Source: Bacteroidales bacterium (GTDB taxonomy: Bacteria > Bacteroidota > Bacteroidia > Bacteroidales > JAIPAP01). From it: a DNA stretch of 64,000 bases. The notes beneath the pieces are model-generated. The model ran no database searches, was not told where the DNA came from, and worked only from the letters and a program-made list of their open reading frames with translations. The stretch is taken from positions 251-64,250 of the forward strand of contig JAIPAP010000004.1 of the NCBI GenBank assembly GCA_021740045.1, given 5' to 3'. The translations under genes and the position numbers were made by a program. Shown piece by piece: positions 3,801-64,000 of the stretch (the first letter of the stretch is position 1; every line of letters begins with the position of its first letter).

Positions 3801-4009
3801 AGTGTTTACCATCAACTTTTTATCTTATATCAGATTATGTGCTCATTAAAAGGGTTTTTTCAGATGTTGCTTTATTCATCCTTTATCGGGATTCATTTTA
3901 TTGAAAGAAAAAACACCTCAAGTTGCAGGTTCATACCGGTAACACGAAACCCAAATAGTGAGTTGCAGCCGGTCATAAGAATCTTATTCGAGCGAAATAA
4001 CTCTCCAAA

Positions 4010-43857: not shown

Positions 43858-43866
43858 TTAACACCT

Positions 43867-49117: not shown

Positions 49118-50755
49118 TTATTGTTTTTTGTAAACCATCTCTCCCGCCGAAAAAGTCTTCAACACTTGGGCACCGGGTACTTTATCGATATCAACCTCCA
49201 TAATATCGCGGTCCAAGATCACAAAATCGGCCCATTTACCCTTTTCAATACTACCTTTTTCATTTTCTTCAAACGATCCTTTCGCCGCCCAAATGGTCAT
49301 GGAACGAAGGGTTTCCTCCCTGTTCAGGGCGTTCTCCATTTGGAAGCCGTTTTCGGGATAGCCATCCAGGTCTTTTCGGGCAATGGCTGCGTAAAACGTA
49401 TGCAAGGGATTGATATTTTCGATGGGAAAATCGGTTCCCATCGGTAACCATCCGTTTTGCTCCAGGAGGTCTTTTAAGGCATATGCCCCTTTTAACCGCT
49501 CTGGGCCAATGCGGTCACCGGCCCAGTACATATCCGATGTGGCATGGGTCGATTGCATGGAAGGGATCACATTGTATTCCCCGAATTTATCAAAATCATC
49601 GGGATGCACAATCTGGGCATGCTCAATACGCCAGCGGCGATCATTATCTTTGTCCAAAATGTCTCCATAAATTTCCAGGAGCAAGCGCGTGGCCGAATCA
49701 CCAATCGCATGTATGTTCAACTGGTAGTTATGTTCATAAACCCGTTGGGCCACTTCTCTAATGTGACCCGGTTCATTCACAAGAATTCCTGTGTTATCCG
49801 GATCATCATTATAAGGCTCTATCAGCTTAGCGCCGCGTGATCCCAGGGCACCGTCGGCATACATCTTTACAGAATGTACGTGCAGCCGGTTAGTTTTATA
49901 TACACCTTTTTCCATAAAGGCCTTGAAGTTCTCCTCATTAGCCGAAAGCATCGCATCAATACGCATTTTAAGCTTCCCTTGCTGGTGCATTGAATCAATC
50001 AGGTTGATCACTTCCTTATGCAATCCAGCATCCATCACAGAAGTCAGGCCCACGGCAAAGCAGTTTTCCTGGGCCTCGAGCAAGGCTTTGGTTTGGGTTT
50101 TAATGTCGGGATCAGGGATCAGGTCTTTAAATCGGTCGGCGGTATTTTCGAGGAAAACGCCGGTAAACTCCCCGTCTTCTATAATGGCCTCCCCTTTGGG
50201 AAATTCATCATTTACGCTAATCCCCAATCGCTCAATGGCTTCGGAGTTGACCACCACGGCGTGTCCGTCGATGCGGATGAGGATAACAGCTGTATTGGGA
50301 AACATCTTATCCAATGGTTCTTTATTGGGGAATGCCTTATTCTCCCAGTCATTCTGATCCCAGCCCCGGCCCACCAGCCATTCGCCGGGATGATCTTTAT
50401 GGTGTTCCTGTAATATGTCCGTGATTTCCTTAAAGGAATTGGTCCCAACAAGGTCAGCATGTTGCAGTCCCAGGCCATATCCATATAAATGGCAATGCGC
50501 ATCATAAAACCCGGGATAAACAGGCTTATTTTCAGCATCAATAATTTGATCCGAATGATATTCCGATAAAATATCCTCATTGCTGCCAACAGCCACAAAC
50601 TTACCGTCATTCACGACAAAGGCTTCAGCTTTGGAAAATGCTTTATCAACAGTATACACCTTAGCATTCTTAACGATCAAATCGGCCGGTTTCTTCATAG
50701 GCTTGCACGCAATTAATGTGGTGATTAAGACAAATAAAGCTGTTCTTGTGTTCAT
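49118..50755 (-). CDS. Amidohydrolase (Amidohydro_3/YtcJ-like), lipoprotein
   Basis: I prefer the ATG at 50755 (MNTRTALFVLITTLIACK). Metal-ligand motifs are PGFYDAHCHLYG, IHAIGD and IEHAQIV, plus the C-terminal GSIEKGKWADFVILD. Confidence 0.85.
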   Translation of the reverse strand: MNTRTALFVLITTLIACKPMKKPADLIVKNAKVYTVDKAFSKAEAFVVNDGKFVAVGSNEDILSEYHSDQIIDAENKPVYPGFYDAHCHLYGYGLGLQHADLVGTNSFKEITDILQEHHKDHPGEWLVGRGWDQNDWENKAFPNKEPLDKMFPNTAVILIRIDGHAVVVNSEAIERLGISVNDEFPKGEAIIEDGEFTGVFLENTADRFKDLIPDPDIKTQTKALLEAQENCFAVGLTSVMDAGLHKEVINLIDSMHQQGKLKMRIDAMLSANEENFKAFMEKGVYKTNRLHVHSVKMYADGALGSRGAKLIEPYNDDPDNTGILVNEPGHIREVAQRVYEHNYQLNIHAIGDSATRLLLEIYGDILDKDNDRRWRIEHAQIVHPDDFDKFGEYNVIPSMQSTHATSDMYWAGDRIGPERLKGAYALKDLLEQNGWLPMGTDFPIENINPLHTFYAAIARKDLDGYPENGFQMENALNREETLRSMTIWAAKGSFEENEKGSIEKGKWADFVILDRDIMEVDIDKVPGAQVLKTFSAGEMVYKKQ

Positions 50756-50884
50756 TTTTCCGCTTTTTGTGCAAAGATATTTATTAACAAACAACGGTTT
50801 ATAATTTTTAAGGGTATGCCCGATCATCTCCTGATAATTTTTTACATTTGCCTTCGAACCTTGAGAACCGATAAGAAAATAGTT

Positions 50885-51409
50885 ATGAAAGATAAGATAT
50901 TGACAACAAGACTTTTGGCCATAGCAGGATTAATCTTTTTTGCCGCTTTTATGCGACTCATCCCTCATTGGCCCAATTTTACGCCGGTAGCGGCCATTGC
51001 ACTATTCGGTGGCACCTATGTGAAGCGCAGGGAGCTGGCATATCTCATCCCAATCATTGCTTTGTTCATTAGTGATGCCATAATCGGTTTTCATCAAAAT
51101 ATGCTGGCGGTATACATTAGCTTTGTGGCTATTGTATTCATGGGAACTTTCTTACGCAATAAAGTAAAAGTGCACAACGTAATCGGTGCTTCGCTAGCCT
51201 CATCCGTTTTATTTTTCCTGGTAACCAACTTTGCGGTATGGCTTACCAGCCCGATTTACGCGGCTAACTCCGGAGGTTTGGTTGCTTCGTATTTCGCCGG
51301 ATTGCCGTTCTTTTACAATGGTCTTTTAGGCAATTTGTTCTACACTGGAATAATATTCGGTGGCTTTTATTTGTTATCAGCAAAAGTACCGAAACTACAA
51401 AAAGCCTAA
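50885..51409 (+). CDS. Polytopic membrane protein (DUF6580-like, putative transporter component; weak family call)
   Basis: I prefer the ATG at 50885 (MKDKILTTRLLAIAGLIFFAAFMRLIPHWPNFTPVAAIALFGG...). It has 5-6 TM helices. Confidence 0.6.
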   Translation: MKDKILTTRLLAIAGLIFFAAFMRLIPHWPNFTPVAAIALFGGTYVKRRELAYLIPIIALFISDAIIGFHQNMLAVYISFVAIVFMGTFLRNKVKVHNVIGASLASSVLFFLVTNFAVWLTSPIYAANSGGLVASYFAGLPFFYNGLLGNLFYTGIIFGGFYLLSAKVPKLQKA

Positions 51410-51457
51410 GTTTCGCTAAATTATAACTAAATCATAACTAAATCTTCACTACTTGCA

Positions 51458-51484
51458 AAAGCCCCGTTGAGGGGCTTTTTTTTT
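51458..51484 (+). terminator. Rho-independent terminator
   Basis: AGCCCC-gttga-GGGGCT followed by a run of 9 T, about 50 nt after the stop at 51409. Confidence 0.75.
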
Positions 51485-51620
51485 GCATAAGCGGATGTGT
51501 AATCCGTTTACGATTGGTTTAGTGGCGCGGATTGTTAATCCACTCCAGCTACAGTGAATGCGATAGCTAACCCGAAAGTTGAGAACGAACATTTTGCTTG
51601 AGCGGATTTGAGATCCACTC
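51481..51620. repeat. Three degenerate tandem copies of the GCGGATTTGTAATCCGC-type hairpin unit
   Basis: The copies are TTTTGCATAAGCGGATGTGTAATCCGTTT (51481-51509), GCGCGGATTGTTAATCCACTC (~51525-51545) and TTTTGCTTGAGCGGATTTGAGATCCACTC (51592-51620). Confidence 0.65.
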
Positions 51621-52294
51621 ATTAAGGCACAAGGCATAAAATACCAATCCGGACCGGTTAAGGGTAGGCAGATATTCAACCGAATTGTTTGACTACAAAT
51701 CATTTCACGAAAAATCCTATAAAAGTTTCTTAAAAAGTGCTACCCTATTCTTCCTATTTTCTTATCCACCATATACACTCATACACTAAAATTTAAAGAA
51801 AACTTAACATACGGATCTTTTTGGTACTGTTAGGCTTTATCATCCTGAATAATTCCTTTATTTTCAGTGCAACCTATATTATTTAGACAAGGTTAGAACA
51901 TAATGCCTAAATACATTGTTATTATAAATAGCTGATTTTGAATTTTTAACTAAATGTTCAAAAGACATTGCTATTTGTCGTATAAATTGTATGTTTGCAA
52001 CCGATTAAAGAACATAATAAAATAAGGTACCGAACATGGAGTTTTTAGAATTAATATTAAATATCATGCGATCCGGAAAGCATAGAAGTTTTTGTTCTAG
52101 CTCATACTCAATGGATTACATCCTTACCGGTATCTTCAGATGCAGTTTTATCACTTGCATTAAACCCCAGGTTATCGTTATATAGGGGCCTTCTCGCACG
52201 ACTGTCGCACATTTATCGAAAGACTTCAAAGCTCAATAAAGATTTAGTCTGGATTGCAATTACAATTTTATAATGCACTAAATACAAGCTAAAT

Positions 52295-55200
52295 ATGACA
52301 TTTAGGGACGTACTTAAAAAAGCAATATTAGTACTTGATGGCGCTTTTGGAACTATGGTTCAACAGAAACGACTTGATGAGGTTGCCTATAGAGGCGATC
52401 TTTTTACGAATCATCCTTGCCCGCTCTATGGATGTAACGATGTTCTGAACCTGTCCCAACCCGGTTTGGTACGTTCCCTTTATAAAGATTACCTTACTGC
52501 CGGGGCGAATATCATAAAAACAAACACATTTAATTCTACACCATATGGCTTACAGGAATATCAACTGGGCGATTATACCGGAAGAATAAACTCTGCCGCG
52601 GTAAGACTTGCCCGGCAGGCTGTTGATGACATCTCGCAACAAAATCCAACTAAACCCATATTTATTGCCGGTGTAATCGGCCCTACCAATAAAACCGCCT
52701 CTATATCTCCAAAGGTTAGCCAACCCGGTTACAGGGATGTAAATTTTGATAATTTGTACAGAAACTATTATCAACAGGTTGAGGCTCTGGGAAATGCTGG
52801 TATTGATTTGTTCCTGGTTGAGACCATATTCGACACCATTAATGCTAAAGCCGCGCTAAACGCGATAAACAGATACTTAAAAGATACCGGGAAGGACATC
52901 CCGGTAATGATCTCGTTAACCATCACTGACGCTAGTGGCCGAACATTAACCGGTCAGACTTTGGAAGCTTTCACTTATTCAATCCTGCAATTCAGCCCGG
53001 TTTCTATCGGGTTGAATTGCTCTTTTGGAGCTGAAAAACTCCTGCCCTACCTTGAAAAGCTATCGGACATTGTACCTACCTACGTAAGCGCCCATCCCAA
53101 TGCCGGCCTTCCCAACGAAGTTGGCGAGTACGATCAGTCAGCCCGGGAAATGGCAGATATGATGGAGAAATATTTACAAAAGGGATTGGTCAATATTATT
53201 GGCGGATGTTGCGGTAGTACACCCAAACATATAGCAGCCATCGCCGAAAAGGCAAGCCAATATGCACCCCGCGAATTACCGGTTATTAAACCCAACACCA
53301 TACTTAGCGGACTGGAACCGCTGGTTATTAATCAAAAGGCAGGATTCATCAAAATTAGTGAGCGGACAAATGTAATGGGGTCACGGAAATTTCTGCGACT
53401 TATACGCGGGGAAAAATATGAGGAAGCACTTTCTATTGCCCGCCAGCAGGTTGACTCAGGAGCCCATATGATCAATATTAACCTCGATGAAGGAATGATC
53501 AATGCCTCGGATGTGATGCCGAAGATATTGAATCTATTGATGTCGGAACCCGAAATAGCCCGTGTTCCGGTAATGATCGATTCTTCAAAATTCGAAGTAC
53601 TTGAAGAAGGTTTGAAATGCCTTCCCGGAAAATCGATAGTCAACTCCCTTAGCCTGAAAGACGGTGAGCCGGAATTCATACGTAAAGCCGGCCGCATAAA
53701 AGAGCTGGGAGCAGCATTGGTGGTCATGGCTTTTGATGAAAAAGGACAAGCTGCTGATTATCAGCGAAAAATTGAAATATGTGAGCGAGCATATCAAATC
53801 CTGGTCCATAAAGTAGGGATCTCGCCTTATGATATCATTTTCGATCCCAATGTATTAACAGTAGCTACCGGTATTGAAGAACATAATAATTATGCTCGCG
53901 ACTTTCTTAAAGCAGTACAATGGATCAAAGCCCATCTTCCCGGCGCTAAGGTAAGCGGTGGCGTTAGTAATGTATCGTTTGCCCTTAGAGGAAATGACAT
54001 GGTGCGTGATGCGATGAACTCCATATTTGTGCACCTGGCTCAAAATGCCGGCATGGATATGGGCATTGTAAATCCGGGAAAAATTCTTTCTTATAATAAA
54101 ATCCCTAACGATCTGCGAGAAGCTATAGAAGATGTCCTGCTTAACAGCGATAGCGAGGCTACCGATCGCTTAACCGATTTGGCCCGTAAGTACAAAGGTG
54201 CCAAATCCGAACAACAATCCAATCACAACCAATGGCGCCGGAAGAAAACCGCTGACAAGCTTAGCTATGCCTTGGAACGCGGCATAAATGATTATCTCCA
54301 GAATGATTTGGATGAAATGATGGCCGAGGTGGACAATCCGCTCACAATAATTGAAGGACCATTGATGCAAGGCATGAACAAAGTGGGCGAACTTTTCGGA
54401 GAGGGCGAAATGTTTCTTCCCCAGGTGGTAAAGAGTGCCCGCACTATGAAGCAAGCCGTATCCATCCTGATGCCTCATATTTTAAATGGTGAAAATGCCA
54501 CTAAGGCTACCAATAATGGAAAAATATTGTTGGCCACTGTTCAAGGCGATGTTCATGACATTGGTAAAAATATACTGGCCCTTATCCTTCAGTGTAACAA
54601 TTACGAAGTGATCGATTTGGGGGTAATGGTTACAAATGAGAAGATCATGGAAGCCATAAAAACAGAAAATCCCGATATAGTAGGTGTTAGCGGATTGATT
54701 ACGCCCTCATTGGAACATATGGAGAGCCTGGCTGAAAATATGGAAAAGCAACAGCTTAACATACCCTTACTATTGGGCGGAGCAACCACTTCAACCATTC
54801 ATACTGCTGTAAAAGTGGCCCCCAAATATTCGGGTATAACTGTTCAAGTGCCCGATGCATCCCAAAGCATCAATATCGTGAACAGGCTGTTAGGTAATGG
54901 TCACGGGGAATTTAAGAAAAGCATCAGGAATGAACAGCAACAAATACTGGCCAATTATCAAACCCGTAAAAAAGGAAAACGTAAATTTCTCTCTATACGG
55001 GAAGCACGTGATAAGCGACTAAAAACCAACTGGGAAGAAAGCCCTGCCAAAAAACCCCATTTTATCGGGACCAAAATATTTACCGATTATCCCCTGGAGC
55101 AACTGGTGGACTACATTGACTGGACTCCATTTTTCCATGGCTGGGGCATGAAAGGGGTGTTCCCTTCCATTCTTGAAAAAGAAAAAGTAGGCGAATCGGC

Positions 55201-55975
55201 CACACGGATTTTTGAGGAAGGCAAAGCTATGCTCCGGGAGATGATTGCCAAGAAGATGCTGAACCCCAAAGGGATCATCGGATTATATCCGGCAAACAGC
55301 AAAGGCGACGATATCATTATTTATAAGGATGATACCCGGCAGGAAGTCCTTGATATCCTTCCTATGCTGCGTCAGCAGGAGCTGAGGGATAAAACGGGTA
55401 AATGCCTCTCATTGAGTGATTATATCGCCCCGGCCGAAACCGGTAAAAAAGACTACATCGGCACTTTTGCCGTAACCGCCGGTCATGAAACCGAAGAACA
55501 TGTAAAAGCATTTAAGGAAGCTGGCGACAGCTACAACAGTATCATGTTCAGGTTACTGGCCGACCGGCTTACCGAGGCATTTGCCGAGTTGCTGCACCTG
55601 AAAGTCCGTAAGGACTATTGGGGCTACGATCCGGATGAAAACCTGGACAAGCAGGAGCTTTTCAAGGAAAAATTCCAGGGCATACGCCCAGCTCCAGGCT
55701 ATCCTGCCTGCCCGGATCATACCCTGAAAAAACACCTCTTCGATTTGCTCGAGGTAGAACAAAACATTGGCATCTCCCTTACGGAGAGTTTTGCCATGAA
55801 CCCGGCCAGTTCGATAACCGGTCTTTTCATCGCTCACAATGAATCAAGGTATTTTGGTGTGGGTAAAGTTAGCAAAGACCAAGTGGAGGACTACGCCAAA
55901 CGCAAAAAGCTGAACATCCGGGAAGCTGAGAAATGGCTGGAACCGGTGCTCAGCTATAAATCAAAAGACATATAA
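52295..55975 (+). CDS. metH: Cobalamin-dependent methionine synthase, full length
   Basis: 1226 aa with a homocysteine-binding domain (GGCCGSTPKHI), a pterin-binding domain, a B12-binding domain (GDVHDIGKNI) and the C-terminal AdoMet-binding reactivation domain. Confidence 0.95.
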   Translation: MTFRDVLKKAILVLDGAFGTMVQQKRLDEVAYRGDLFTNHPCPLYGCNDVLNLSQPGLVRSLYKDYLTAGANIIKTNTFNSTPYGLQEYQLGDYTGRINSAAVRLARQAVDDISQQNPTKPIFIAGVIGPTNKTASISPKVSQPGYRDVNFDNLYRNYYQQVEALGNAGIDLFLVETIFDTINAKAALNAINRYLKDTGKDIPVMISLTITDASGRTLTGQTLEAFTYSILQFSPVSIGLNCSFGAEKLLPYLEKLSDIVPTYVSAHPNAGLPNEVGEYDQSAREMADMMEKYLQKGLVNIIGGCCGSTPKHIAAIAEKASQYAPRELPVIKPNTILSGLEPLVINQKAGFIKISERTNVMGSRKFLRLIRGEKYEEALSIARQQVDSGAHMININLDEGMINASDVMPKILNLLMSEPEIARVPVMIDSSKFEVLEEGLKCLPGKSIVNSLSLKDGEPEFIRKAGRIKELGAALVVMAFDEKGQAADYQRKIEICERAYQILVHKVGISPYDIIFDPNVLTVATGIEEHNNYARDFLKAVQWIKAHLPGAKVSGGVSNVSFALRGNDMVRDAMNSIFVHLAQNAGMDMGIVNPGKILSYNKIPNDLREAIEDVLLNSDSEATDRLTDLARKYKGAKSEQQSNHNQWRRKKTADKLSYALERGINDYLQNDLDEMMAEVDNPLTIIEGPLMQGMNKVGELFGEGEMFLPQVVKSARTMKQAVSILMPHILNGENATKATNNGKILLATVQGDVHDIGKNILALILQCNNYEVIDLGVMVTNEKIMEAIKTENPDIVGVSGLITPSLEHMESLAENMEKQQLNIPLLLGGATTSTIHTAVKVAPKYSGITVQVPDASQSINIVNRLLGNGHGEFKKSIRNEQQQILANYQTRKKGKRKFLSIREARDKRLKTNWEESPAKKPHFIGTKIFTDYPLEQLVDYIDWTPFFHGWGMKGVFPSILEKEKVGESATRIFEEGKAMLREMIAKKMLNPKGIIGLYPANSKGDDIIIYKDDTRQEVLDILPMLRQQELRDKTGKCLSLSDYIAPAETGKKDYIGTFAVTAGHETEEHVKAFKEAGDSYNSIMFRLLADRLTEAFAELLHLKVRKDYWGYDPDENLDKQELFKEKFQGIRPAPGYPACPDHTLKKHLFDLLEVEQNIGISLTESFAMNPASSITGLFIAHNESRYFGVGKVSKDQVEDYAKRKKLNIREAEKWLEPVLSYKSKDI

Positions 55976-56004
55976 TAGTTCTGGAACCCTGAAAAACGTT
56001 AACC

Positions 56005-56934
56005 ATGAGAATAACAGACATCTTTAAAAAACAACAACGAACCTTTTCATTCGAGTTCTTTCCGCCCCGGAATTTCGATTCGGCGGTAAGATTCGGTATT
56101 AATTCCGGCCAGCTAATGAAGTTAAACCCTTCATTTGTAACAGTTACCTATGGAGCCGGAGGAGGAACCCAGGAACGCACATTCGACCTGGTAAACTTAT
56201 TCCAAAATCAGCTCGATTTTACCTGTATGGCCCATTACACCTGCGTTAATGCGGTAAAAGAAAAAATCGCATACGATATGCGCATTTTACAGGATATGGG
56301 TATAGAAAATGTGATGTTGCTAAGAGGCGATCCTCCAAAAAATGAAACCCACATCGATCCCAATCCCGATGGTTTTGACCATGCCAGTGACCTCATCCGC
56401 TTTGTGCGGGAAAACTATAACTTCGATATAGGCGCCGGAGCCTATCCAGAGGGTCATGTGGAAGCGCCTAATATGGATGAGGACCTGATCAATCTCAGGA
56501 TTAAGGTTGATTCGGGAGCCGATTTTTTGGTAACCCAGATGTTCTTCGATAACAAATATTATTGGGATTTCATGGACCGGGCTGAAAAGGTGGGAATTAA
56601 ATGCCGCATCATTCCGGGTATCATCCCCATTAACAATTACCGGCAAATCAAAAACTTTGCAAAAATCTCCGGCGCCACCATTCCTCAGCAGATCATAAAA
56701 CGGATGGAACCCTACAAGAACAGTCCCAACGAAGTCTATAAGATAGGTTTGGAACTGGCCATTAATCAAGCCCGCGACCTGCTTGATAATGGAGCCCCGG
56801 GCATCCATATTTATACCCTTAATAAGTCAAGGGCAGCTATTGAGATGTATGAATGTCTTTCGAAAGATTACAAGGAGATCAAATCCAATTTCGAAAAAAG
56901 CTGTTCCCCGCATCTTCCTGCATCCGCTTATTAA
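56005..56934 (+). CDS. metF: 5,10-methylenetetrahydrofolate reductase
   Basis: 309 aa with FSFEFFPP, VTYGAGGGT, LRGDPP, ADFLVTQMFFD and a typical TIM-barrel layout. Confidence 0.9.
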   Translation: MRITDIFKKQQRTFSFEFFPPRNFDSAVRFGINSGQLMKLNPSFVTVTYGAGGGTQERTFDLVNLFQNQLDFTCMAHYTCVNAVKEKIAYDMRILQDMGIENVMLLRGDPPKNETHIDPNPDGFDHASDLIRFVRENYNFDIGAGAYPEGHVEAPNMDEDLINLRIKVDSGADFLVTQMFFDNKYYWDFMDRAEKVGIKCRIIPGIIPINNYRQIKNFAKISGATIPQQIIKRMEPYKNSPNEVYKIGLELAINQARDLLDNGAPGIHIYTLNKSRAAIEMYECLSKDYKEIKSNFEKSCSPHLPASAY

Positions 56935-57009
56935 GCCGGATGAGTCGCTAAATTTAGCATCATGATTTTTATAAACAAACATTACAAATAAACAGAAGGA
57001 GTAAACATT

Positions 57010-57654
57010 ATGAGTTTCGATTTAGGTAAAATTTCAGAAACCCTTGTAACAGGAAAAGTAGATGATTTGAAAACATTAACCGGGCAAGCGCTTGAAACTG
57101 ATATTAAACCCGGCGATATTCTCAACCAGGGCCTTTTGCCGGGTATGGATACGGTAAGCCAACGATGGAAAGCCGGCGACATGTTTATGCCCGAGGTATT
57201 ACGTTGCGCCAAAGCTATGGGCGGTGCAATGGAAGTATTACGCCCTCATCTTTCGGAAAGTGAGTTGGGTAATGCCGGAACTATAGTTATTGGTACGGTA
57301 GCCGGCGATTTGCACGATATCGGAAAAGACCTGGCTGCTATGATGTTCGAAGGTGCAGGCTATAATGTTATAAATATAGGCATCGATCAGCCAAATGAAG
57401 CTTTTGTAAAGGCTGTTAAAGAACACAAGCCCAACGTACTGGGAATGTCGGCCCTGCTTACCACCACCATGCCCCGCATGGGAGAAGTGATCAACAGTTT
57501 GAAAGAAGCCGGTATTCGCGATCAGGTAGCCGTAATATTGGGCGGTGCGCCGGTGACAGAGGAATTTGCCAAAGAAATAGGGGCCGACCTTTACGCACCC
57601 AATGCCGGCTCGGCAGTGGAGATTACTAAGGAATATCTTGAGAGTAAAGTATAA
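57010..57654 (+). CDS. Corrinoid (B12-binding) protein of methyltransferase systems (MtgC/MttC-like)
   Basis: 214 aa with an N-terminal helical cap domain and a Rossmann B12 domain carrying GDLHDIGK (DxHxxG), MSALLTTT (SxL) and ILGGAPV (GG). A GAAGGAG sequence lies 8 nt upstream of the ATG. Confidence 0.9.
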   Translation: MSFDLGKISETLVTGKVDDLKTLTGQALETDIKPGDILNQGLLPGMDTVSQRWKAGDMFMPEVLRCAKAMGGAMEVLRPHLSESELGNAGTIVIGTVAGDLHDIGKDLAAMMFEGAGYNVINIGIDQPNEAFVKAVKEHKPNVLGMSALLTTTMPRMGEVINSLKEAGIRDQVAVILGGAPVTEEFAKEIGADLYAPNAGSAVEITKEYLESKV

Positions 57655-57799
57655 AAAGGCTATGGTTGGCGCCCTATGCAACATTTGGACTGATTATAAG
57701 CATTCTGGCAAATTCGATAATAATTGCCAACTGCCAATCAGGTTAAGGAAATCAATTCAGTAAGTTCGATATTAGAGAAACTTAAACAAGCAAGAATAC

Positions 57800-59248
57800 A
57801 TGAAAATCAATCAATCTATAAATATGTCCACCCGTTTCAGGGTGCTTTCCGAGGACCAGATCGAAGAGATCTTCTTTGCTGCCCTGGAAGTGCTTGAACG
57901 CACCGGTGGAGTCATTTATCACGAAGAGGCGCTGGAGCTCTTTAAAAACAGCAATGCTGTGGTGCGTGATAAAAAAGTGCGCATTCCGGCATCGATGGTG
58001 GAGGAGGCACTTAATTTCTATCCCCGCAAGATCACCCTGAAAGGAAGGAATGGCAAACGTTCCCTGCAATTACAAAAAGATACGGTTGGTTTCGGTACCG
58101 GCTCCGATCTTCCATTTACCTATGACCGTAAAACCGGTGAAAGGAGAAGAACCCTGTATAATGATGTACGCAATGCCGGTAAACTGGTAGACGCCCTGCC
58201 AAACTATGACTTTTTTATGTCGCATGGCATTGTAGGCGATGCACCCAATACACAGACCTATGACCGGCACCAGTTTTTAGCCATGCTTGAGCAATGCACC
58301 AAGCCTATGGTGGTAACCAGCGTTGATGGAGAAGGGTTGGAAGATCTTTGGCGTATGGGGTGCGTTCTACAGGGCGGCGAAGAGGAATTCAGGCTGAATC
58401 CTTTGTTTGTGGCTTACATTGAACCTATCTCACCCTTGAAGAATGACCGTACTGCAGTGGAAAAACTGCTTTTTGCCGCCGAAAAGAAAATTCCGGCCAT
58501 GTATACACCATGCCCAAGTTCCGGGGCCACAGCTCCGGCAACCATGGCGGGTATGCTGGTACAGTCATTAGCTGAAACGTTACTGGCAGTGGTTTTATGT
58601 CACTTGAAAAATCCTGGGATGCCGCTTATCATGGGTGGTGTGACCACTGTGCTGGATATGAAAAAATCAACCTATTCATACGGCGCCCCGGAGCTCTCAC
58701 TGGCCTCGGCAGCTAATACCGATATTTCAAAATGGCTTAACCTGATCATGTTCTCAACAGGTGGCTGTACCGACTCCAAAGTGCTGGACGAACAGGCTGC
58801 CGCCGAGCAAATGATGAATCTTTTCTATGCTTATTTGTCAGGCGCCAACCTTATCCATGATGTTGGCTATATAGATCATGGTACCAATGCCTCACTGGAA
58901 AGCTTAGTGATGAACGAGGAAATGATGGGCATGGTGCGAGCCTTTGGAAAAGGAATCAATACCGATGACGAGCATATGGCACTTGATCTCATCGAAAAGC
59001 AAGGCCCCGGTGGGGAATATGTAACCACCGATCACACATTCGAGCATTGGCAGGAATGGTATAGACCTACCCTGCAGGATCGCAGCGACTACGAAACCTG
59101 GAAGAACAACGGTTCAAAGACCATGATCGACAGGGTGAATGAACGCACCCAGCACCTGCTCGACACCTATGAAGCAGACCCCATAAAGGATGATCAGTGG
59201 AAGGAATTAAAGAAAATTGTAGACGATGCCGATAAACGGCACGCCTAA
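57800..59248 (+). CDS. MttB-superfamily methyltransferase, non-pyrrolysine type (paralog 1)
   Basis: 482-aa uninterrupted ORF. Typical family blocks are LSEDQIEEI...LEVLERTG, GGEEEFR, YIEPISPL and YSYGAPELSL. It lies next to a corrinoid protein. Confidence 0.85.
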   Translation: MKINQSINMSTRFRVLSEDQIEEIFFAALEVLERTGGVIYHEEALELFKNSNAVVRDKKVRIPASMVEEALNFYPRKITLKGRNGKRSLQLQKDTVGFGTGSDLPFTYDRKTGERRRTLYNDVRNAGKLVDALPNYDFFMSHGIVGDAPNTQTYDRHQFLAMLEQCTKPMVVTSVDGEGLEDLWRMGCVLQGGEEEFRLNPLFVAYIEPISPLKNDRTAVEKLLFAAEKKIPAMYTPCPSSGATAPATMAGMLVQSLAETLLAVVLCHLKNPGMPLIMGGVTTVLDMKKSTYSYGAPELSLASAANTDISKWLNLIMFSTGGCTDSKVLDEQAAAEQMMNLFYAYLSGANLIHDVGYIDHGTNASLESLVMNEEMMGMVRAFGKGINTDDEHMALDLIEKQGPGGEYVTTDHTFEHWQEWYRPTLQDRSDYETWKNNGSKTMIDRVNERTQHLLDTYEADPIKDDQWKELKKIVDDADKRHA

Positions 59249-59268
59249 TTTGTATTCAACAAATTATA

Positions 59269-60759
59269 TTGAACATGACGAACAGAACAAACTATACAAT
59301 AAATGAAAGCCCACATTTTGAGATCTTGTCCGAAGACCAAAAGGAAAAGATCTTTAACGGGATGATGCGCACCCTTCAATATACCGGGGCAAATGTGCAC
59401 CATGAAAAGGCCCGGGAGCTATTTAAAAAGCACGGCTGTAAAGTCGACGGCGTTCGCGTGTATTTTCCGCCGGAATTAATTCTCAAAGCCTTGTCGACTG
59501 TGCCCCCGGTTACGGAAATATTTCCCTGGGACGGTGATGAGAGCAAAAAGATCGTGGTGGAAAAAAACCGGAGTTATTTTGGCCCCGGCCCTACCCCACC
59601 CAATTTTATCGATACCGATACCCTGGAGCGCCGGCCATATTTACGAAAAGACGCATCGCTGGTAGCACGTGTATGTGATGCTTTGCCCAACATGGGCTAT
59701 GTGCAATCACTCGGTTCCATAAATGATGTAACCAACGGCCTGGCCGATGTTTATGAATTTGCCGACATGGTTAGGAATACCACCACACCCATTATGAGTT
59801 GGTCGTTTACCAAAGACGGTTGCCGCGACATTCACCGTATGGGTATTGCTATGGCCGGCGGTGAGGAAGAATTTCGCCAGCGTCCGAATTACATCTTCTA
59901 CGGTGAACCTATTTCACCGCTGGTGAGTGACTATCATGCCATCGACAAATGCATGTACTGTGCCGAGCATCGCATTCCACAGGTATACAGCCCTTGCGCT
60001 ATTGGCGGAGGGACCGTTCCGGCAACCCATGCAGGACAGCTTGTTGTTGCCCTTTCCGAATCAATGGTGGGAGTTATTGCCACCCAACTGATCAACCCCG
60101 GAACCTGCGTGATTATTGGCGGTGTCCAATCCATTCTCGACATGCGTTTTTCCATTTATTCATACGGAGCGCCCGAACTTTCACTGTTAAGTGCCGCACA
60201 CACTGAGGTGGTTCATTACTGTGGACTTCCCATGTACTCCACGTCAGGGTGTACCGACACCAAGAAGATGGATGCCCAGTCGGCTATGGAAGCCAGCCTC
60301 TCCATTAATGCCGCCATGATGAGCGGCGCCAACTTCGTTCATGATAACGGATACACCGAATCGGGCATTACAGGTGATATTTTCCAAACCGTGATGGACG
60401 ATGAGCTTATCAGCATGGCCCGGGTTATTGAAAAAGGTATTAAGATCGATCCTGAAACCCTGGCTGTTGATGTTATTGATAACGTAGGATCGGGTGGTCA
60501 TTACCTGTATGAAGACCACACCATGAACTGGTTTATGGAACATTGGCGCCCAACCCTTATGGACCGCAACAGCTACGAGAACTGGGTTGAACAGGGCAGC
60601 AAAACCATGAAGGACCGCATTATTGAAAAAACACGCGATTTGATCCAAAACTACGAAGGTCCGCAGAATAAAGTTCCGGCAAAAGCCAGCGAGGAGATTG
60701 AAAAGATCCTTCAGGAAGCCGAAGAGCGTATTAAAAAAGAAGGCGTAGCTCATGAATAA
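59269..60759 (+). CDS. MttB-superfamily methyltransferase, non-pyrrolysine type (paralog 2)
   Basis: 496-aa uninterrupted ORF with the same conserved blocks (LSEDQKEKI, GGEEEFR, YGEPISPL, YSYGAPELSL). It is strongly diverged from paralog 1 elsewhere. Confidence 0.85.
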   Translation: MNMTNRTNYTINESPHFEILSEDQKEKIFNGMMRTLQYTGANVHHEKARELFKKHGCKVDGVRVYFPPELILKALSTVPPVTEIFPWDGDESKKIVVEKNRSYFGPGPTPPNFIDTDTLERRPYLRKDASLVARVCDALPNMGYVQSLGSINDVTNGLADVYEFADMVRNTTTPIMSWSFTKDGCRDIHRMGIAMAGGEEEFRQRPNYIFYGEPISPLVSDYHAIDKCMYCAEHRIPQVYSPCAIGGGTVPATHAGQLVVALSESMVGVIATQLINPGTCVIIGGVQSILDMRFSIYSYGAPELSLLSAAHTEVVHYCGLPMYSTSGCTDTKKMDAQSAMEASLSINAAMMSGANFVHDNGYTESGITGDIFQTVMDDELISMARVIEKGIKIDPETLAVDVIDNVGSGGHYLYEDHTMNWFMEHWRPTLMDRNSYENWVEQGSKTMKDRIIEKTRDLIQNYEGPQNKVPAKASEEIEKILQEAEERIKKEGVAHE

Positions 60760-62746
60760 ATATCTGATCGGCATCGATACAGGAGGAACCTTTACCGACG
60801 GTGTGCTGATGCAATACAGGACCCGCAAGGTGATTCGGTCGGCCAAAACATTAACCACCAAGGATGATTTGAAAAAAGGTGTGTTAAATGTACTGGACGA
60901 CCTTCACCTTGAGGAAGATCTTGATATCAGACTGGTTGGTATTTCCAGTACCCTTGCCACCAATTCCATTGCTGAAGGAAAAGCCAGCCGGGTAGGGCTC
61001 ATCTTGCTGGGTTACGACAAGGAATTGGTGGAGGATTATGGGTTGGATAAAAATCTCGCTGCCGGGAAGATCGCCTATTTTTCAGGAGGACATAATGCCC
61101 AAGGCGCCGAATTGGAAAAACCCGATATTGAAGGTATCAAAAAATGGGTGAAGGCTAATGAGCATCATTTTGATGCTCTGGCCATCTCCTCTTACTTCAG
61201 CCCGTTGAATCCGCAGCATGAGGTCAAAGCTTTTAAAGCACTACAAGACATTTCCGATTTGCCGGTGGTTATGGGGCATCAGCTTTCGTCCAGGATCGAT
61301 TCGGTGAAACGGGCGGCTACAGCTGCTATCAATGCATCATTAGTAGCCGTAATGCAAAATTTTATTAGCGCCGTGCGTAACTCACTTCATGCCAAGGGCA
61401 TCAAAGCTCCACTCATGATCGTAAGAGGCGACGGCACCATGATGCCGTTTTCAGAAGCGATCAGAAAGCCGGTGGAGACGGTTTTATCGGGTCCTGCTGC
61501 CAGCGCCATAGGAGGCCGGTTCTTGTCGGGTAAAGAACGATCCCTGGTGATTGACGTGGGAAGTACCACCACCGACATGGCCCTGGTGGCCAATTCACGG
61601 GTAGTGGTTTCCGAAAAAGGAGCCCGCGTTGGTAAAACACAAACTGCCGTAAATGCAGCCAACGTAAGAACCATTTCAATGGGTTGCGACAGCCGGATCG
61701 GATTTGATAAATACAACCATATTACGCTCGGCCCCGACAGGGTAACGCCCCTATCGCAGATGGCCTCTCGGTTTAAAAAAGTGAAAGCCGAACTCAAAAA
61801 CCTTAAGAATATTCAGCGGGCAGCCAACATTTCGGATGTCACCTACTGGTATTTGTACCGGCCACTCGATGATCATGTTGCTTCATCATTGAATGAAAAA
61901 CAACATAAGGTGCTGGAATTGATTGATGAAAAGCCCATGAGCGTGGCCCAAATTGTCGCCGAAATGGGTGTTTATCATCCGGCCCAGCTTAATATGGATG
62001 AGCTCATCAAGCAGGAGTACATCGAATGCTCAGCACTAACACCATCCGATTTGCTGCATGTGGAAAACGAGATTGAACTATGGGATCAGAAAGCCGCCAT
62101 CAATGCCCTGAAGCATCAATGTAAAATCGGGGGTTTCAGCATCAGAAAATTTATCGATACGGTTATTGACAAGATCTTGAATACCATGGTGGAGGAAATT
62201 ATCATCTACCTGGCATGCCAGGACGGAACCACAGAGCAAATGCCCGAAAAGATCGACGGGGAATGGGGTAAATGGATGTTGCGACAAACCCTGAAACAAA
62301 GCAACGAATTTATTTCCATCAACCTTAATAGCATGGCCCCAATTATTGGAACGGGTGCGCCCGCCGAATTTTTCCTGAAAAGGGCTGTAAAGATCCTCGA
62401 CGCTCAGTTCATTTTACCTGAACACCACGAAGTGGCCAATGCTGTGGGAGCGGTTTCCGGATCAGTGATGGAAATAATGGAATCCATTGTATTCGAGCAG
62501 GAAAGCGAAGAAAAGCACTGCTTTGTGGTAAAGTTGAATGGTCATTCGAAGAATTTTGAGGAGTTCGAAAGTGCTTGTGACTATGCCTCCAGTGAGGTTG
62601 GTAAGTTGGCCCGGCAAGCGGTTTCGGAGGCAGGAGCCGTCGATCCCTTTGTGGAACTTACCGATAAAAGGGAAGGCTCCATTCACCGGTTTATTGCCCG
62701 GGCGGTCGGCAATCCCAGTTTATCGGAAAAACTGAAGCAGGAATAG
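60752..62746 (+). CDS. Hydantoinase/oxoprolinase-family (ASKHA-fold) protein with a unique C-terminal half
   Basis: 664 aa with the N-terminal IGIDTGGTFTDGVL, STLATNSIAEGK, VLSGPAASAIGG and VIDVGSTTTDMALV blocks of the HyuA-like family. An 8-nt overlap links it to the preceding mttB paralog. Confidence 0.75.
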   Translation: MNKYLIGIDTGGTFTDGVLMQYRTRKVIRSAKTLTTKDDLKKGVLNVLDDLHLEEDLDIRLVGISSTLATNSIAEGKASRVGLILLGYDKELVEDYGLDKNLAAGKIAYFSGGHNAQGAELEKPDIEGIKKWVKANEHHFDALAISSYFSPLNPQHEVKAFKALQDISDLPVVMGHQLSSRIDSVKRAATAAINASLVAVMQNFISAVRNSLHAKGIKAPLMIVRGDGTMMPFSEAIRKPVETVLSGPAASAIGGRFLSGKERSLVIDVGSTTTDMALVANSRVVVSEKGARVGKTQTAVNAANVRTISMGCDSRIGFDKYNHITLGPDRVTPLSQMASRFKKVKAELKNLKNIQRAANISDVTYWYLYRPLDDHVASSLNEKQHKVLELIDEKPMSVAQIVAEMGVYHPAQLNMDELIKQEYIECSALTPSDLLHVENEIELWDQKAAINALKHQCKIGGFSIRKFIDTVIDKILNTMVEEIIIYLACQDGTTEQMPEKIDGEWGKWMLRQTLKQSNEFISINLNSMAPIIGTGAPAEFFLKRAVKILDAQFILPEHHEVANAVGAVSGSVMEIMESIVFEQESEEKHCFVVKLNGHSKNFEEFESACDYASSEVGKLARQAVSEAGAVDPFVELTDKREGSIHRFIARAVGNPSLSEKLKQE

Positions 62747-62749
62747 CGG

Positions 62750-63427
62750 ATGAAAAAGGAAACAGCACATAAAAAACTCGTTATTGCTTGCGGAAGCATA
62801 GGGCCTGAACTGGAATCTCTGCCAAAACCACCAGGTACTGATCTCTATTTTATGGATCAAAACCTTCATCGTATTCCGGAAAGGTTAAAAGAGGAAGTGC
62901 AAAAAAGCCTGGACCGGTTCGACCAATATGACCAAGTGGTATTGGGCTATGGGCTATGTTCCAACGGAGTTGCCGGGGTAATTCCGCCAACCCAGCAACT
63001 GTTTATACCACGCGTGCACGATTGCATTTCGCTATTCCTTGGCAGCCGGAATAAATACAAGGATGTGTTTTATAACTACCCGGGAAGCTATTTTTTGACC
63101 AAGAGCTGGATTGAAGAGCTAAAAGATCCACTGGGACTCATGGAAAATGAATATACCCAACGGGTAGGAAGAGAAACTGCCGAATGGGCCATCAACGAAG
63201 AAATTAAAAATTACAAATACATCATATTTGTTAATAACGGCGTGGGCGACACGGACAAATGCAGAAACAGGGCGATTGAAAACGCAACTTATTTCGATAA
63301 AGAGTTTGTGGAAATGGAAGGACAGCTGGCCTATTTCCACCGTATACTAAACGGCCCTTATGACAAAACCGATTTTGTCACCATTATGCCGGGAGAAGAA
63401 GTAAAACAAAAGGACTTTTTAAAATAG
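62750..63427 (+). CDS. DUF1638 domain protein
   Basis: 225 aa. The LVIACGSIGPELESL start and overall layout match my memory of DUF1638. It starts 3 nt after the upstream stop. Confidence 0.65.
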   Translation: MKKETAHKKLVIACGSIGPELESLPKPPGTDLYFMDQNLHRIPERLKEEVQKSLDRFDQYDQVVLGYGLCSNGVAGVIPPTQQLFIPRVHDCISLFLGSRNKYKDVFYNYPGSYFLTKSWIEELKDPLGLMENEYTQRVGRETAEWAINEEIKNYKYIIFVNNGVGDTDKCRNRAIENATYFDKEFVEMEGQLAYFHRILNGPYDKTDFVTIMPGEEVKQKDFLK

Positions 63428-63438
63428 GAGACCATTGT

Positions 63439-64000
63439 ATGATTATAGTAGGTGAACTGATCAATGCAAGCCGGAAAAAGATCAGAAACGAAATCAAGGA
63501 AAAAAATTACGATGAAATAGCCCGGGTGGCTAAGGAACAGCTAGCCAACGGAGCTGACTTCATCGATGTTAATGCCGGTATCTTTGTCGGGCAGGAAGAA
63601 GATTACCTGAAATGGCTGGTAAAAACGGTTCAGGAAAATACCGATGCACCTTGTTGCATCGACACCCCTGACCCAACCGCTCTGGAAGCCGCCATTAAGG
63701 TGCATAAAGGCTCCCCCATGTTGAACTCCATTTCGCTCGAAAGCGAGCGCTATGAAAAGATGATTCCCGTATTACGGGGCACCGATATGAAAGTGATTGC
63801 CTTGTGCATGAGCGACGAGGGTATGCCTTACACTACCAGCGACCGCATGAAAATAGCTGATAAGCTGGTTAACAACCTGGTTCAGAATAATGTAAAGATC
63901 GAGAACATTTTTGTCGATCCGCTGGTGCAGCCTATCGGTTCAGGCGATAACCTGGGCGTGGAATTCCTGAATGCCGTGGAACAAATCCATAAGGAATTCG
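63439..64000 (+). CDS. Pterin-binding methyltransferase (methyl-corrinoid:tetrahydrofolate methyltransferase, MtgA/AcsE/MtrH-like); 3' end off the window
   Basis: Absent from the ORF track because there is no stop. Hand translation gives MIIVGELINASRKKIRNEIKEKNYDEIARVAKEQLANGADFIDVNAG...APCCIDTPDP...MLNSISLE...IFVDPLVQPIG, a DHPS-like pterin-binding barrel pattern. Confidence 0.8.
   Translation, partial: MIIVGELINASRKKIRNEIKEKNYDEIARVAKEQLANGADFIDVNAGIFVGQEEDYLKWLVKTVQENTDAPCCIDTPDPTALEAAIKVHKGSPMLNSISLESERYEKMIPVLRGTDMKVIALCMSDEGMPYTTSDRMKIADKLVNNLVQNNVKIENIFVDPLVQPIGSGDNLGVEFLNAVEQIHKEF

Follow-up and report, generated by a model that had tools for sequence, protein, structure and literature searches.

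A corrinoid methyl-transfer module with two pyrrolysine-free MttB paralogs, joined to a probable betaine-synthesis and methyl-cycle operon in a Bacteroidales bacterium

The 64,000-nucleotide (nt) stretch of a Bacteroidales bacterium genome analyzed here (contig JAIPAP010000004.1, positions 251 to 64,250; hereafter the window) ends in six genes for a corrinoid protein, two paralogs of the MttB methyltransferase superfamily (MttB-1 and MttB-2), a HyuA-like ATPase, a DUF1638 protein and a methyltetrahydrofolate (CH3-THF):corrinoid methyltransferase (MeTr). Our analysis shows that this module is a member of a widespread MttB/HyuA-like type, joined here to an operon for the S-adenosylmethionine (SAM) cycle and, probably, betaine synthesis that is typical of salt-lake anaerobes. 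Its substrates are not directly readable from the sequence, a point on which we agree with the sequence-only reading that first drew attention to these genes, yet the active sites and the gene neighborhoods point to a role other than the one that reading had favored.

Gene content and extent of the operon

The features of the locus are as follows; L001 is the same contig from another assembly, which extends past the end of the window.

51457..51479, + strand: terminator-like hairpin, 9-bp stem with 5 GC pairs, then a T-run; closes the gene at 50816-51409
52295..55975, + strand: metH, full-length cobalamin-dependent methionine synthase with all modules, 1226 amino acids (aa); Pfam S-methyl_trans, Pterin_bind, B12-binding_2, B12-binding, Met_synt_B12
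56005..56934, + strand: metF, methylenetetrahydrofolate reductase, 309 aa; Pfam MTHFR, E 3e-88
57010..57654, + strand: corrinoid (B12-binding) protein, methyl carrier, 214 aa; B12-binding_2 E 1e-18, B12-binding E 5e-27
57800..59248, + strand: MttB-1 ("B1" type), 482 aa; MTTB PF06253, E 1.8e-96
59269 (TTG) or 59275 (ATG)..60759, + strand: MttB-2 ("B2" type), 496 or 494 aa; PF06253, E 4e-83
60752..62746, + strand: HyuA-like ASKHA ATPase, 664 aa; Hydant_A_N E 1.6e-31, Hydantoinase_A (N-terminal half) E 2.3e-28
62750..63427, + strand: DUF1638 protein, 225 aa; PF07796, E 2.5e-40
63439..64000, + strand, cut by the window end: AcsE/MeTr-like CH3-THF:corrinoid methyltransferase; Pterin_bind, E 8e-18; 273 aa in L001
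L001 16466-17302, starting 4 nt after the MeTr gene: SAM methyltransferase resembling sarcosine/dimethylglycine N-methyltransferase (SDMT), 278 aa; NF041675 match over its full length

The six same-strand genes and the gaps between them (145, 20 or, from the ATG, 26, -8, 3 and 11 nt) were reproduced as the sequence-only reading had described them, with gaps from -8 to 145 nt. Strong Pfam and NCBIfam matches also bear out its claim of a complete corrinoid methyl-transfer set, made up of MttBs of the methyltransferase I (MT1) type, a corrinoid protein, a CH3-THF:corrinoid methyltransferase and accessory proteins. The six-gene boundaries, on the other hand, had to be given up, as the module lies within a metH-metF...SDMT-ahcY(-metK-pfkB) operon. 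The metF gene, whose product makes or consumes CH3-THF, ends 75 nt before the corrinoid protein gene, and no convincing terminator was found between metH, metF and the corrinoid module. Past the window end, L001 holds the full 273-aa MeTr, followed by the SDMT-like methyltransferase and ahcY. The genes form one long operon, metH-metF-cor-mttB1-mttB2-hyuA-like-DUF1638-meTr-SDMT-ahcY, to which metK and pfkB are added in relatives. Judged by gene spacing, the corrinoid protein, both MttBs, MeTr and the accessory proteins would be co-transcribed with the SDMT-like enzyme and the methyl cycle, so that a single unit combines the SAM/methyl cycle and a predicted betaine-forming N-methyltransferase with corrinoid-dependent methyl transfer. 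Since the operon is larger than had been claimed, the likely physiological role of the module changes as well.

The hairpin at 51457-51479 is the upstream limit of the transcription unit. It is separated from metH by an 815-nt non-coding stretch (51480-52294), which presumably holds the operon promoter and regulatory region and in which position 52037 begins a short open reading frame (ORF), some 50 codons long. No sign of riboswitch control was found, as an Rfam scan of positions 50000-64000 (E <=0.1) detected no riboswitch, its matches being PYLIS_3 and one sub-threshold speF.

Active sites of the two MttB paralogs

Profile searches place both MttB-like ORFs inside the MttB superfamily, as had been predicted, with PF06253 scores of 323.6 bits for MttB-1 and 279.6 bits for MttB-2 (cut-off 25) over residues 8-475 and 7-478, respectively. 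The paralogs are 41% identical to each other (BLASTP) and 26-31% identical to MtgB of Desulfitobacterium hafniense, MttB of Methanosarcina barkeri and the Sinorhizobium meliloti homolog 4yyc. On TIGR02369, the model for pyrrolysine (Pyl)-dependent MttB, they score 400 (MttB-1) and 358 bits (MttB-2), under the cut-off of 525. MttB-1 carries the signature S102/E208/C238/F318/C323/H353/D354/G361, and MttB-2 has P/E/C/Y/C/H/D/G at the same columns. When MttB-1 is aligned to M. barkeri MttB, C238, C323 and H353 correspond to Met249, Pyl334 and Tyr364, the residues that line the catalytic centre of the Pyl enzyme. The MttB-1 codon at the Pyl position (nt 58766) is TGT, for Cys323, with no UAG; MttB-2 has Cys326 there (494-aa numbering), and no pyl genes were seen. 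The Rfam match to PYLIS_3 ("pyrrolysine insertion sequence mttB") covers window positions 58766-58865 (+ strand) inside mttB-1, starting exactly at the Cys323 codon, and scores 40.2 bits against a threshold of 38; further matches occur in two related loci (L003 7926-8025 and L023 5390-5490). This match is conserved coding sequence and no evidence of a Pyl insertion element, as the Rfam model can fire on non-Pyl homologs.

The sequence-only reading had compared the paralogs with MtgB, MtpB, MtcB and MtyB and thus with demethylation of a quaternary amine (glycine betaine or another betaine, choline or carnitine), the methyl group passing through the corrinoid protein and MeTr to tetrahydrofolate (THF) as in MtgABC. 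Family membership speaks for such a role: all characterized non-Pyl members of the superfamily use quaternary amines, MtgB is the best solved-structure match (E 1e-70, about 31% identity), and the top NCBIfam match of the corrinoid protein is MtgC_2. The binding residues speak against it. A 2026 study used docking, mutagenesis and a ligand-bound structure to define the glycine-betaine site of MtgB as Tyr97/Arg312/His348/Phe356, in which Tyr97 and Phe356 grip the quaternary nitrogen by cation-pi interactions and Arg312 and His348 grip the carboxylate; replacement of Arg312 by Leu (R312L) abolishes activity, and this Arg, which makes the salt bridge with the acidic group, is found again in MtcB, MtpB, MtyB and MthB (PMC13080624). 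In our alignment the four columns read S/F/H/G in MttB-1 and P/Y/H/G in MttB-2, so that three of the four residues, including Arg312, are replaced and the His alone is kept. The pattern is steady over 18-19 orthologs from several phyla, with Phe at the Arg312 column in 18 of 18 MttB-1 orthologs, and Tyr (17) or Phe (2) in the 19 MttB-2 orthologs. Neither paralog has the residues that mark Pyl-MttB, MtgB or the acidic quaternary-amine group (MtpB/MtcB/MtyB/MthB, set apart by the Arg column only), and in both of them recognition of a carboxylate by the His appears to be retained while recognition of a quaternary nitrogen appears to be lost. An Arg-Arg pair is common to the paralogs and MtgB and is not shared with the trimethylamine (TMA)-specific MttB.

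The same picture is found in the wider family. Among 1.8 billion representative proteins searched, 1440 relatives were recovered at E <=1e-30, and the 150 nearest clusters at 50% identity were inspected. An aromatic residue at the Arg312 column and the His-Asp pair are almost universal among these clusters and Cys at the Pyl column is common, the wider signature of the clade being Cys(Pyl position)-His-Asp together with Glu208. The second Cys (C238) is present in 19 of the 150, which weakens a Cys2His zinc site as a general explanation of the active site. Arg occurs at the Arg312 column in just three of the clusters, and we therefore advise caution in annotating non-Pyl MttB homologs as quaternary-amine demethylases, since the residue that defines the latter is so rarely present. 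A rough neighbor-joining tree groups both paralogs within a clade of 20 tips, with the three structural references all outside it. By alignment and tree, we assign both paralogs to a large, pyrrolysine-free MttB clade without a characterized member. True MtgB-type genes with the full tetrad occur as a separate third paralog beside B1 and B2 in two related loci (L027 and L104), and the Bacteroidales operon has no betaine transporter. Taken with the substitutions in the tetrad, these observations make quaternary-amine demethylation by B1 and B2 very improbable.

Accessory proteins, gene neighborhoods and distribution

The corrinoid protein has the cap and Rossmann domains of the methyltransferase-cognate corrinoid family, with a DxHxxG motif (D100-L-H102-D-I-G, residues 100-105, nt 57307-57324) as well as SxL and GG motifs, in line with the B12 binding expected of it. 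Its MtgC_2 match scores 240 bits, under the 370-bit cut-off, and its TIGR02370 score of 196.8 bits is slightly under the cut-off of 215.3; the nearest solved structures are PDB 1y80 and MttC 7xcn_M. The full-length MeTr of L001 passes NF005719 (AcsE/MeTr type) with 340.9 bits against a cut-off of 259, the 226 bits of the window fragment being lowered by truncation at the window end, and its nearest solved structures are 4o0q, a D. hafniense methyltransferase, and the Carboxydothermus MeTr 2yci. The SDMT-like protein scores 403 bits on NF041675, the sarcosine/dimethylglycine N-methyltransferase equivalog (cut-off 550), and 219 bits against the Galdieria SDMT 2o57. It is unlikely to be a SAM-dependent corrinoid reactivator of the CpaM type, as it scores 37 bits for CpaM compared to 403 for the SDMT model, and two related loci (L019 and L024) already have a MetH activation domain for that role.

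The HyuA-like protein, whose gene overlaps the 3' end of the MttB-2 gene by 8 nt, has the full-length fold and the ASKHA motifs of a HyuA-type ATPase subunit. Foldseek searches with its AlphaFold2 (AF2) model (pLDDT 85.5) gave full-length matches to the ATPase subunits of N-methylhydantoinase, acetone/acetophenone carboxylase and caprolactamase (E 1e-24 to 3e-20, TM score by query 0.50-0.59), compared to a generic ASKHA similarity to RACo 3zyy (E 5e-5). Both ASKHA phosphate motifs are conserved in 43 homologs: in DxGGTxxD the D9 is nearly invariant and the rest invariant, and DxGxTTTD is invariant throughout. A HyuB-like gene, which a hydantoinase, oxoprolinase or acetone carboxylase holoenzyme would require, was not found beside the module in the loci with Pfam-annotated or scanned neighbors, and the protein has neither the Fer2 or RACo Pfam domains nor the Fe-S domain of RamA or RACo. 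The idea that it simply substitutes for RamA/RACo was rejected, as genuine RACo-type genes co-occur with it in six loci (L020, L023, L069, L108, L110 and L111) and the HyuA-like gene tracks B1/B2. Because it stands directly downstream of an MttB gene in 36 of its 49 occurrences and true RACo genes co-occur with it, we conclude that the HyuA-like ATPase is a dedicated partner of this MttB type.

The DUF1638 protein scores 138.4 bits against the 27-bit cut-off of PF07796 and is a probable accessory factor for corrinoid (re)activation. Six residues, C14, H40, C70, H90, D91 and C92, are invariant in 37 homologs. Its AF2 model (pLDDT 92.5) has no significant fold neighbor in the PDB by Foldseek (best E 0.04), and the invariant residues suggest a metal or cofactor site in a fold that has no solved representative. 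The split MetH of Phaeobacter inhibens depends genetically on DUF1638, which co-occurs there with a RamA-like protein (PMC5764234), and in Ruegeria it is more abundant on N-osmolytes (PMC12478193).

A stand-alone MetH activation domain of 339-344 aa lies upstream of the corrinoid gene in two related loci (L019 1792-2826; L024 4195-5214, with metF between), with no other MetH module nearby in either, which suggests that MetH-style reductive methylation serves the corrinoid protein of the module in some lineages. These loci, the methyl-cycle genes adjoining the module and the Cys-Cys-His arrangement at the centre of the active site could also be read as a split methionine synthase or thiol methylation system, in which one MttB, together with MeTr and the corrinoid protein, would use a Cys/Cys/His zinc site in place of the MetH homocysteine module, which is missing from the vicinity in L019 and L024, and remethylate the homocysteine derived from AhcY. 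We consider this extremely unlikely. A complete metH lies next door in the window and upstream of the module in seven other loci (L006, L009, L010, L014, L033, L034 and L040), the second Cys is missing from most of the clade, and the reading explains neither the presence of two paralogs nor their association with MtgB and with the strain DCMF cluster described below. Furthermore, related clusters pair B1 with a separate homocysteine-methyltransferase domain, so B1 is not the homocysteine module there. Such "Cor - Hcy-methyltransferase - B1" clusters (Cor, corrinoid protein; Hcy, homocysteine) were seen in L059, L064, L070, L077 and L093; in L070 the HyuA-like gene is present and no B1-type MttB is annotated. 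An Antarctic-lake study of metagenome-assembled genomes (MAGs) hypothesized that an arrangement of corrinoid protein, homocysteine methyltransferase and MttB is a methionine synthase with an unknown methyl donor (PMC9324843).

To compare neighborhoods, 109 loci were annotated locally. In species-representative genomes, 18 loci share the gene order, 17 of them in Bacteroidales/Bacteroidetes MAGs and one in a Balneolales MAG, in keeping with the Bacteroidota origin proposed for the window. The order cor-mttB1-mttB2-hyuA-like-DUF1638-meTr-SDMT-ahcY is kept in every related locus of sufficient length; the MttBs of the Bacteroidales loci are 81-88% identical, compared to just 46-59% for the HyuA-like and DUF1638 proteins. 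Synteny therefore holds among related Bacteroidales, but the suggestion that the arrangement is special to Bacteroidota does not: the core (corrinoid protein, two MttBs, HyuA-like, MeTr) is widespread, being found also in Thermodesulfobacteriota, Desulfatibacillaceae, Opitutales, Balneolales and many metagenomes, and the same architecture has been published for the Firmicute DCMF, with syntenic regions known from Sporomusa ovata. The B1 signature S-E-x-[FWY]-C-H-D-G is present in 93 of the 109 loci, and B1 and B2 occur together in 52. Because they co-occur and each has its own corrinoid protein in several loci, B1 and B2 look like two MT1 enzymes of one pathway.

Two kinds of partner gene bear on what that pathway might be. 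A third paralog of the MtgB type stands beside the B1/B2 core in three loci (L027, L103 and L104). The full MtgB tetrad is present in L027, where the protein is 41% identical to D. hafniense MtgB and is accompanied by an OpuA-type betaine transporter and a GntR regulator, and in L104; the assignment of the L103 protein rests on its Arg, as only part of the tetrad aligns. In 26 loci, which represent four or more named lineages, the core comes with an SDMT-like gene instead, and none of the 109 loci has both an MtgB-type and an SDMT-like gene. The product of MtgB is dimethylglycine and the substrates of SDMT are sarcosine and dimethylglycine, so the metabolites common to both partners are the N-methylglycines. 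No gene like glycine/sarcosine N-methyltransferase (GSMT) adjoins SDMT in any of the 26 loci, where the corrinoid module occupies the spot beside SDMT in which a GSMT gene would be expected. The window genes from 40.7 to 50.8 kb were also inspected for GSMT and glycine-related genes, and none was found among these unrelated genes.

The surroundings of the SDMT-type loci appear biosynthetic from their gene content, with serine/glycine supply, one-carbon reduction, SAM recycling and osmolyte uptake represented. Downstream of the module, related Bacteroidales loci have metK, a PfkB-family kinase, plausibly an adenosine kinase, and btuFCD, and the Bacteroidales set of metH, metF, ahcY, metK, PfkB kinase and btuFCD is a SAM regeneration cycle. 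Desulfobacterota versions have metK, ahcY, DUF1015, serA, a YbaK-like protein, an ACT protein weakly like GcvR, RACo, DUF1638, MeTr and SDMT; the Opitutales version has the core and MeTr with SDMT and RACo; and OpuA transporters are present in L022 and L111. The named carriers are mostly from salt-lake settings. Judged from isolate names, the 18 species-representative loci stem largely from Kulunda soda lakes, Great Salt Lake and sediments of a similar kind; a Desulfosalsimonas MAG and Desulfohalobiaceae are further carriers.

Several details of these loci are worth recording. A DUF1015 protein with no NCBIfam match occurs with serA in L020 (5310-9164), L036 (6328-7668 and 19100-20683) and L110 (6137-9199), directly adjacent to it in L020 and L110, and may be an unrecognized enzyme of the serine or glycine pathway. 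L111 is the sole locus with two SDMT-like genes; the second, divergent one (3373-4203, - strand) scores 209 bits on NF041675 and lies, together with a HAD-IB phosphatase of the phosphoserine-phosphatase superfamily (1946-2959, - strand), divergently upstream of the module. In L003, two strong cobalamin riboswitches (1861-2097 and 5359-5575, - strand; 93-95 bits) precede btuFCD-like genes divergent from the corrinoid operon, consistent with B12 import in support of the module.

The metH and metF genes adjacent to the module could suggest that B1 and B2 harvest methyl groups, as Pyl-independent demethylases of some other pair of non-quaternary donors plentiful in anoxic saline sediments, such as TMA and dimethylamine or dimethyl sulfide and methanethiol, and feed the MetH-MetK-SDMT route so that scavenged methyls pay for betaine. 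An MT1 function is the norm for the family, the "Cor - Hcy-methyltransferase - B1" clusters fit an enzyme on the donor side, the residue at the Arg312 position is aromatic as in Pyl-MttB (Y329), and the Cys at the Pyl position belongs to a Glu/Cys/His/Asp set that could hold a Lewis-acid metal in place of Pyl. However, this reading leaves unexplained why Opitutales, Desulfobacterota and L022, which have no metH nearby, consistently pair the module with SDMT and not with MetH, and it accounts neither for the association with MtgB-type genes and betaine transporters nor for the induction by betaine in DCMF. The carboxylate-binding His is kept, the Arg-Arg pair is the one common to MtgB and not to the TMA-specific MttB, and a Cys2His zinc site is weakened by a second Cys that is not general in the clade. 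We regard methyl harvesting from such donors as unlikely, though it is the strongest of the competing explanations.

Methyl exchange between CH3-THF and N-methylglycines as a possible role

Acetobacterium woodii and D. hafniense, the organisms of the MtgABC system, stop at dimethylglycine. The closest known system to the one described here is that of strain DCMF ("Ca. Formimonas warabiya"), which demethylates betaine to dimethylglycine and on to sarcosine and, on betaine, strongly induces Ga0180325_114734-114742, a cluster of the order CoP(210)-MTI(485)-CoP(210)-MTI(488)-"hydantoinase"(668)-MTII(265)-MtgB(471)-OpuD-OpuD (CoP, corrinoid protein; MTI and MTII, methyltransferases I and II; Holland et al. 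2022, PMC9768040). Sporomusa ovata, a fermenter of betaine, dimethylglycine and sarcosine, shows synteny with the first half of this cluster, and syntenic regions occur also in "Ca. Frackibacter"; in A. woodii and D. hafniense the match is confined to the MtgB half. The DCMF authors suggested that the extra MTI/CoP pairs might serve dimethylglycine (PMC9768040). Matched by order and protein size, DCMF and the window share corrinoid protein(s), two MTIs (about 485-488 aa), a hydantoinase-A-like protein (about 668 aa) and an MTII (about 265 aa), so the hydantoinase-like partner is not unique to the window, and L103 and L104 show the DCMF order with B2 and B1 signatures. The DCMF cluster is catabolic and differs in having the 471-aa MtgB, two OpuD and two corrinoid proteins, while the window has one corrinoid protein, DUF1638 and the metH-metF and SDMT-ahcY flanks.

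Other systems are more distant. MtgABC of D. hafniense and A. woodii shares an MttB-superfamily MT1 (TIM barrel, about 30% identity), a B12-binding corrinoid protein and a corrinoid:THF methyltransferase with the window, but only His348 of the tetrad is common to both, the window MeTr is AcsE/4o0q-like and not like DSY3157 (MtgA), and the window has two paralogs with HyuA-like and DUF1638 proteins where MtgABC is activated by RamA. Methanosarcina MttB/MttC has in common with the window the superfamily, the aromatic residue at the MtgB-Arg312 position, an FGTG loop (MttB-1) and the PYLIS_3 match at the homologous codon; the window has a TGT Cys in place of the Pyl UAG, with Met249 changed to Cys and Tyr364 to His. 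In Ruegeria pomeroyi MtgBCD(E) and the split MetH of Phaeobacter inhibens, a corrinoid module is likewise tied to methionine synthesis with DUF1638 as an accessory that is required or co-induced (PMC12478193, PMC5764234). These are aerobic Alphaproteobacteria with a RamA-like activase and neither HyuA-like protein nor SDMT; their module replaces MetH, which is intact in the window, and their MttB (4yyc-like) keeps Tyr97, Arg312 and His348. The GSMT/SDMT operons of halophiles (Halorhodospira, Aphanothece, Methanohalophilus) similarly cluster an SDMT-family enzyme with SAM-cycle genes in salt-adapted hosts, but the 26 loci here have no GSMT gene beside SDMT. A literature search for Bacteroidota MttB systems, zinc or Cys variants of MttB, and betaine synthesis in Salinivirga or Chitinivibrio returned nothing relevant.

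Our preferred, though still tentative, explanation is that the paralogs exchange methyl groups between CH3-THF and the N-methylglycines and so serve the betaine operon; it is plausible but falls somewhat short of probable. One MttB would act on sarcosine and the other on dimethylglycine, the retained His holding the carboxylate of the N-methylglycine in a site with no quaternary cage. Each MttB would load methyl groups onto the corrinoid protein that both share, or take them off it, and the AcsE-like MeTr would link that protein to CH3-THF. Protonation cannot prepare such amines for Co(I) attack, so pyrrolysine must have a non-protic substitute. One candidate is the Cys/His/Asp/Glu group around the Pyl position, as a Lewis-acid metal site or an acid-base set; the other is the dedicated ATPase. 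The HyuA-like and DUF1638 proteins are presumed to be obligatory accessories of this MttB type, with a role in activating, at the expense of ATP, the cofactor or else the unreactive amine. The likelihoods that we attach to the several readings were judged singly, overlap and do not sum to one, and that of the exchange includes both its anabolic version and the dimethylglycine salvage considered below.

The direction of such an exchange may depend on the genes around it. By our own estimate, good to about 10 kJ/mol and valid for simple amines only, the free energy change of CH3-THF + amine = THF + methylamine differs from zero by no more than about 5 kJ/mol; the estimate used tabulated methylammonium free energies, the constant for condensation of formaldehyde with THF and a methylene/methyl-THF couple of -200 mV. 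The step that SDMT drives with SAM is irreversible. If the exchange is near-thermoneutral, mass action sets its direction: oxidation of CH3-THF and the exergonic MtgB reaction would draw it toward glycine in catabolic clusters, while in the window operon MetF would raise CH3-THF and SDMT would drain dimethylglycine, so that flux would run from glycine toward betaine. Together with the irreversibility of SDMT, this makes it most plausible that the module works with SDMT in the production of glycine betaine, glycine being converted through sarcosine to dimethylglycine on CH3-THF and the final methyl group coming from SAM; alternatively, the module may balance or salvage the sarcosine/dimethylglycine pool. 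In the anabolic version, halophilic anaerobes of several phyla would make betaine in a SAM-sparing way, the module replacing GSMT and SAM being spent just on the final quaternization by SDMT, a proposal that we regard as possible but doubtful. Methylation of nitrogen by methyl-cobamides has a precedent in anilines in mixed or engineered Mta/Mtg systems. A further precedent is N5 of THF itself, which is methylated in every methyltransferase II (MT2) enzyme. A route in which all three betaine methyls come from CH3-THF was rejected on group-transfer grounds, because a quaternary ammonium is a better methyl donor than CH3-THF, as the directions of BHMT and MtgABC show.

A number of points weigh against the proposed exchange. 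The substrate assignment would follow from gene neighborhood and residue logic, the thermodynamic estimate comes from simple methylamines and not from glycine or sarcosine, and the SDMT-like protein falls under the NCBIfam equivalog cut-off (403 against 550 bits). To our knowledge, all characterized MttB-superfamily enzymes act as MT1 demethylases, and the clusters that pair B1 with a homocysteine methyltransferase point to B1 as an enzyme on the methyl donor side. DCMF has three MTIs for two observed demethylations, so one paralog per step is not established, and the HyuA-like gene is present and induced in that catabolic cluster; if ATP were stoichiometrically coupled, demethylation could be the irreversible direction. 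The B1/B2 core also lies beside other MttB types and unrelated genes (L069 and L108), which makes other substrate pairs possible. It is possible, finally, that GSMT is encoded elsewhere in the carrier genomes, as our negative result for GSMT covers the loci only.

Salvage of dimethylglycine and sarcosine follows the same substrate logic and keeps the MT1 direction typical of the family. External dimethylglycine from betaine-demethylating neighbors would be methylated in part by SDMT and demethylated in part by B1/B2 to glycine, the resulting CH3-THF regenerating SAM, with an overall balance of 3 dimethylglycine to 2 betaine and glycine. The entire SAM cycle lies within the operon, as this scheme would need, and the OpuA transporters adjoin the module in L022 and L111. 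However, the Bacteroidales operons have no importer other than btuFCD, the serA, DUF1015, HAD-IB and GcvR-like genes of the Desulfobacterota versions point to a de novo supply of serine and glycine, and a steady supply of external dimethylglycine would be required. We consider salvage on its own to be quite unlikely, less likely than the anabolic version of the exchange.

If the anabolic version of the exchange is correct, an amino acid would for the first time be seen to receive an N-methyl group through a corrinoid under physiological conditions, and the direction known for the MttB family would be reversed. A module that methylates would make betaine cheaper, greatly lowering the ATP spent on an osmolyte thought to restrict low-energy metabolisms in strong salt, and would bear on the bioenergetic argument about which metabolisms are possible at high salinity. 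In salt-lake anaerobes of four or more named lineages the module is paired with an SDMT-like enzyme and the SAM cycle, joined in Desulfobacterota by genes for serine synthesis, and this pairing suggests that the folate pool and osmolyte synthesis are connected in a way not recognized before. In either direction, how a non-quaternary amine is activated for Co(I) attack without pyrrolysine is a question that bears on this clade. Published genome analyses report that no enzymes for oxygen-free demethylation of dimethylglycine or sarcosine were found (PMC4993014), and the locus and its relatives, which combine a HyuA-like ATPase with MttBs of a clade that carries Cys in the place of Pyl and keeps the carboxylate-binding His, are a concrete candidate for such anaerobic, Pyl-independent demethylation.

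Other MttB variants with the signatures LEAFAHDG, VEAFCHDG and SNVFCHDG lie beside the B1/B2 core in L069 (1730-6046) and L103 (3463-4674), often behind a GntR regulator of their own. Their neighbors (an ornithine cyclodeaminase/mu-crystallin, a 3-hydroxyisobutyrate-dehydrogenase-like protein and a DAO-family oxidoreductase) hint at further methylated substrates, for example N-methylproline. Upstream in the window and unrelated to the corrinoid module, positions 43027-44847 and 45586-46683 hold a transketolase split into two genes, one for the N-terminal and one for the C-terminal half, and a tandem pair of peroxiredoxin/thioredoxin-like genes.

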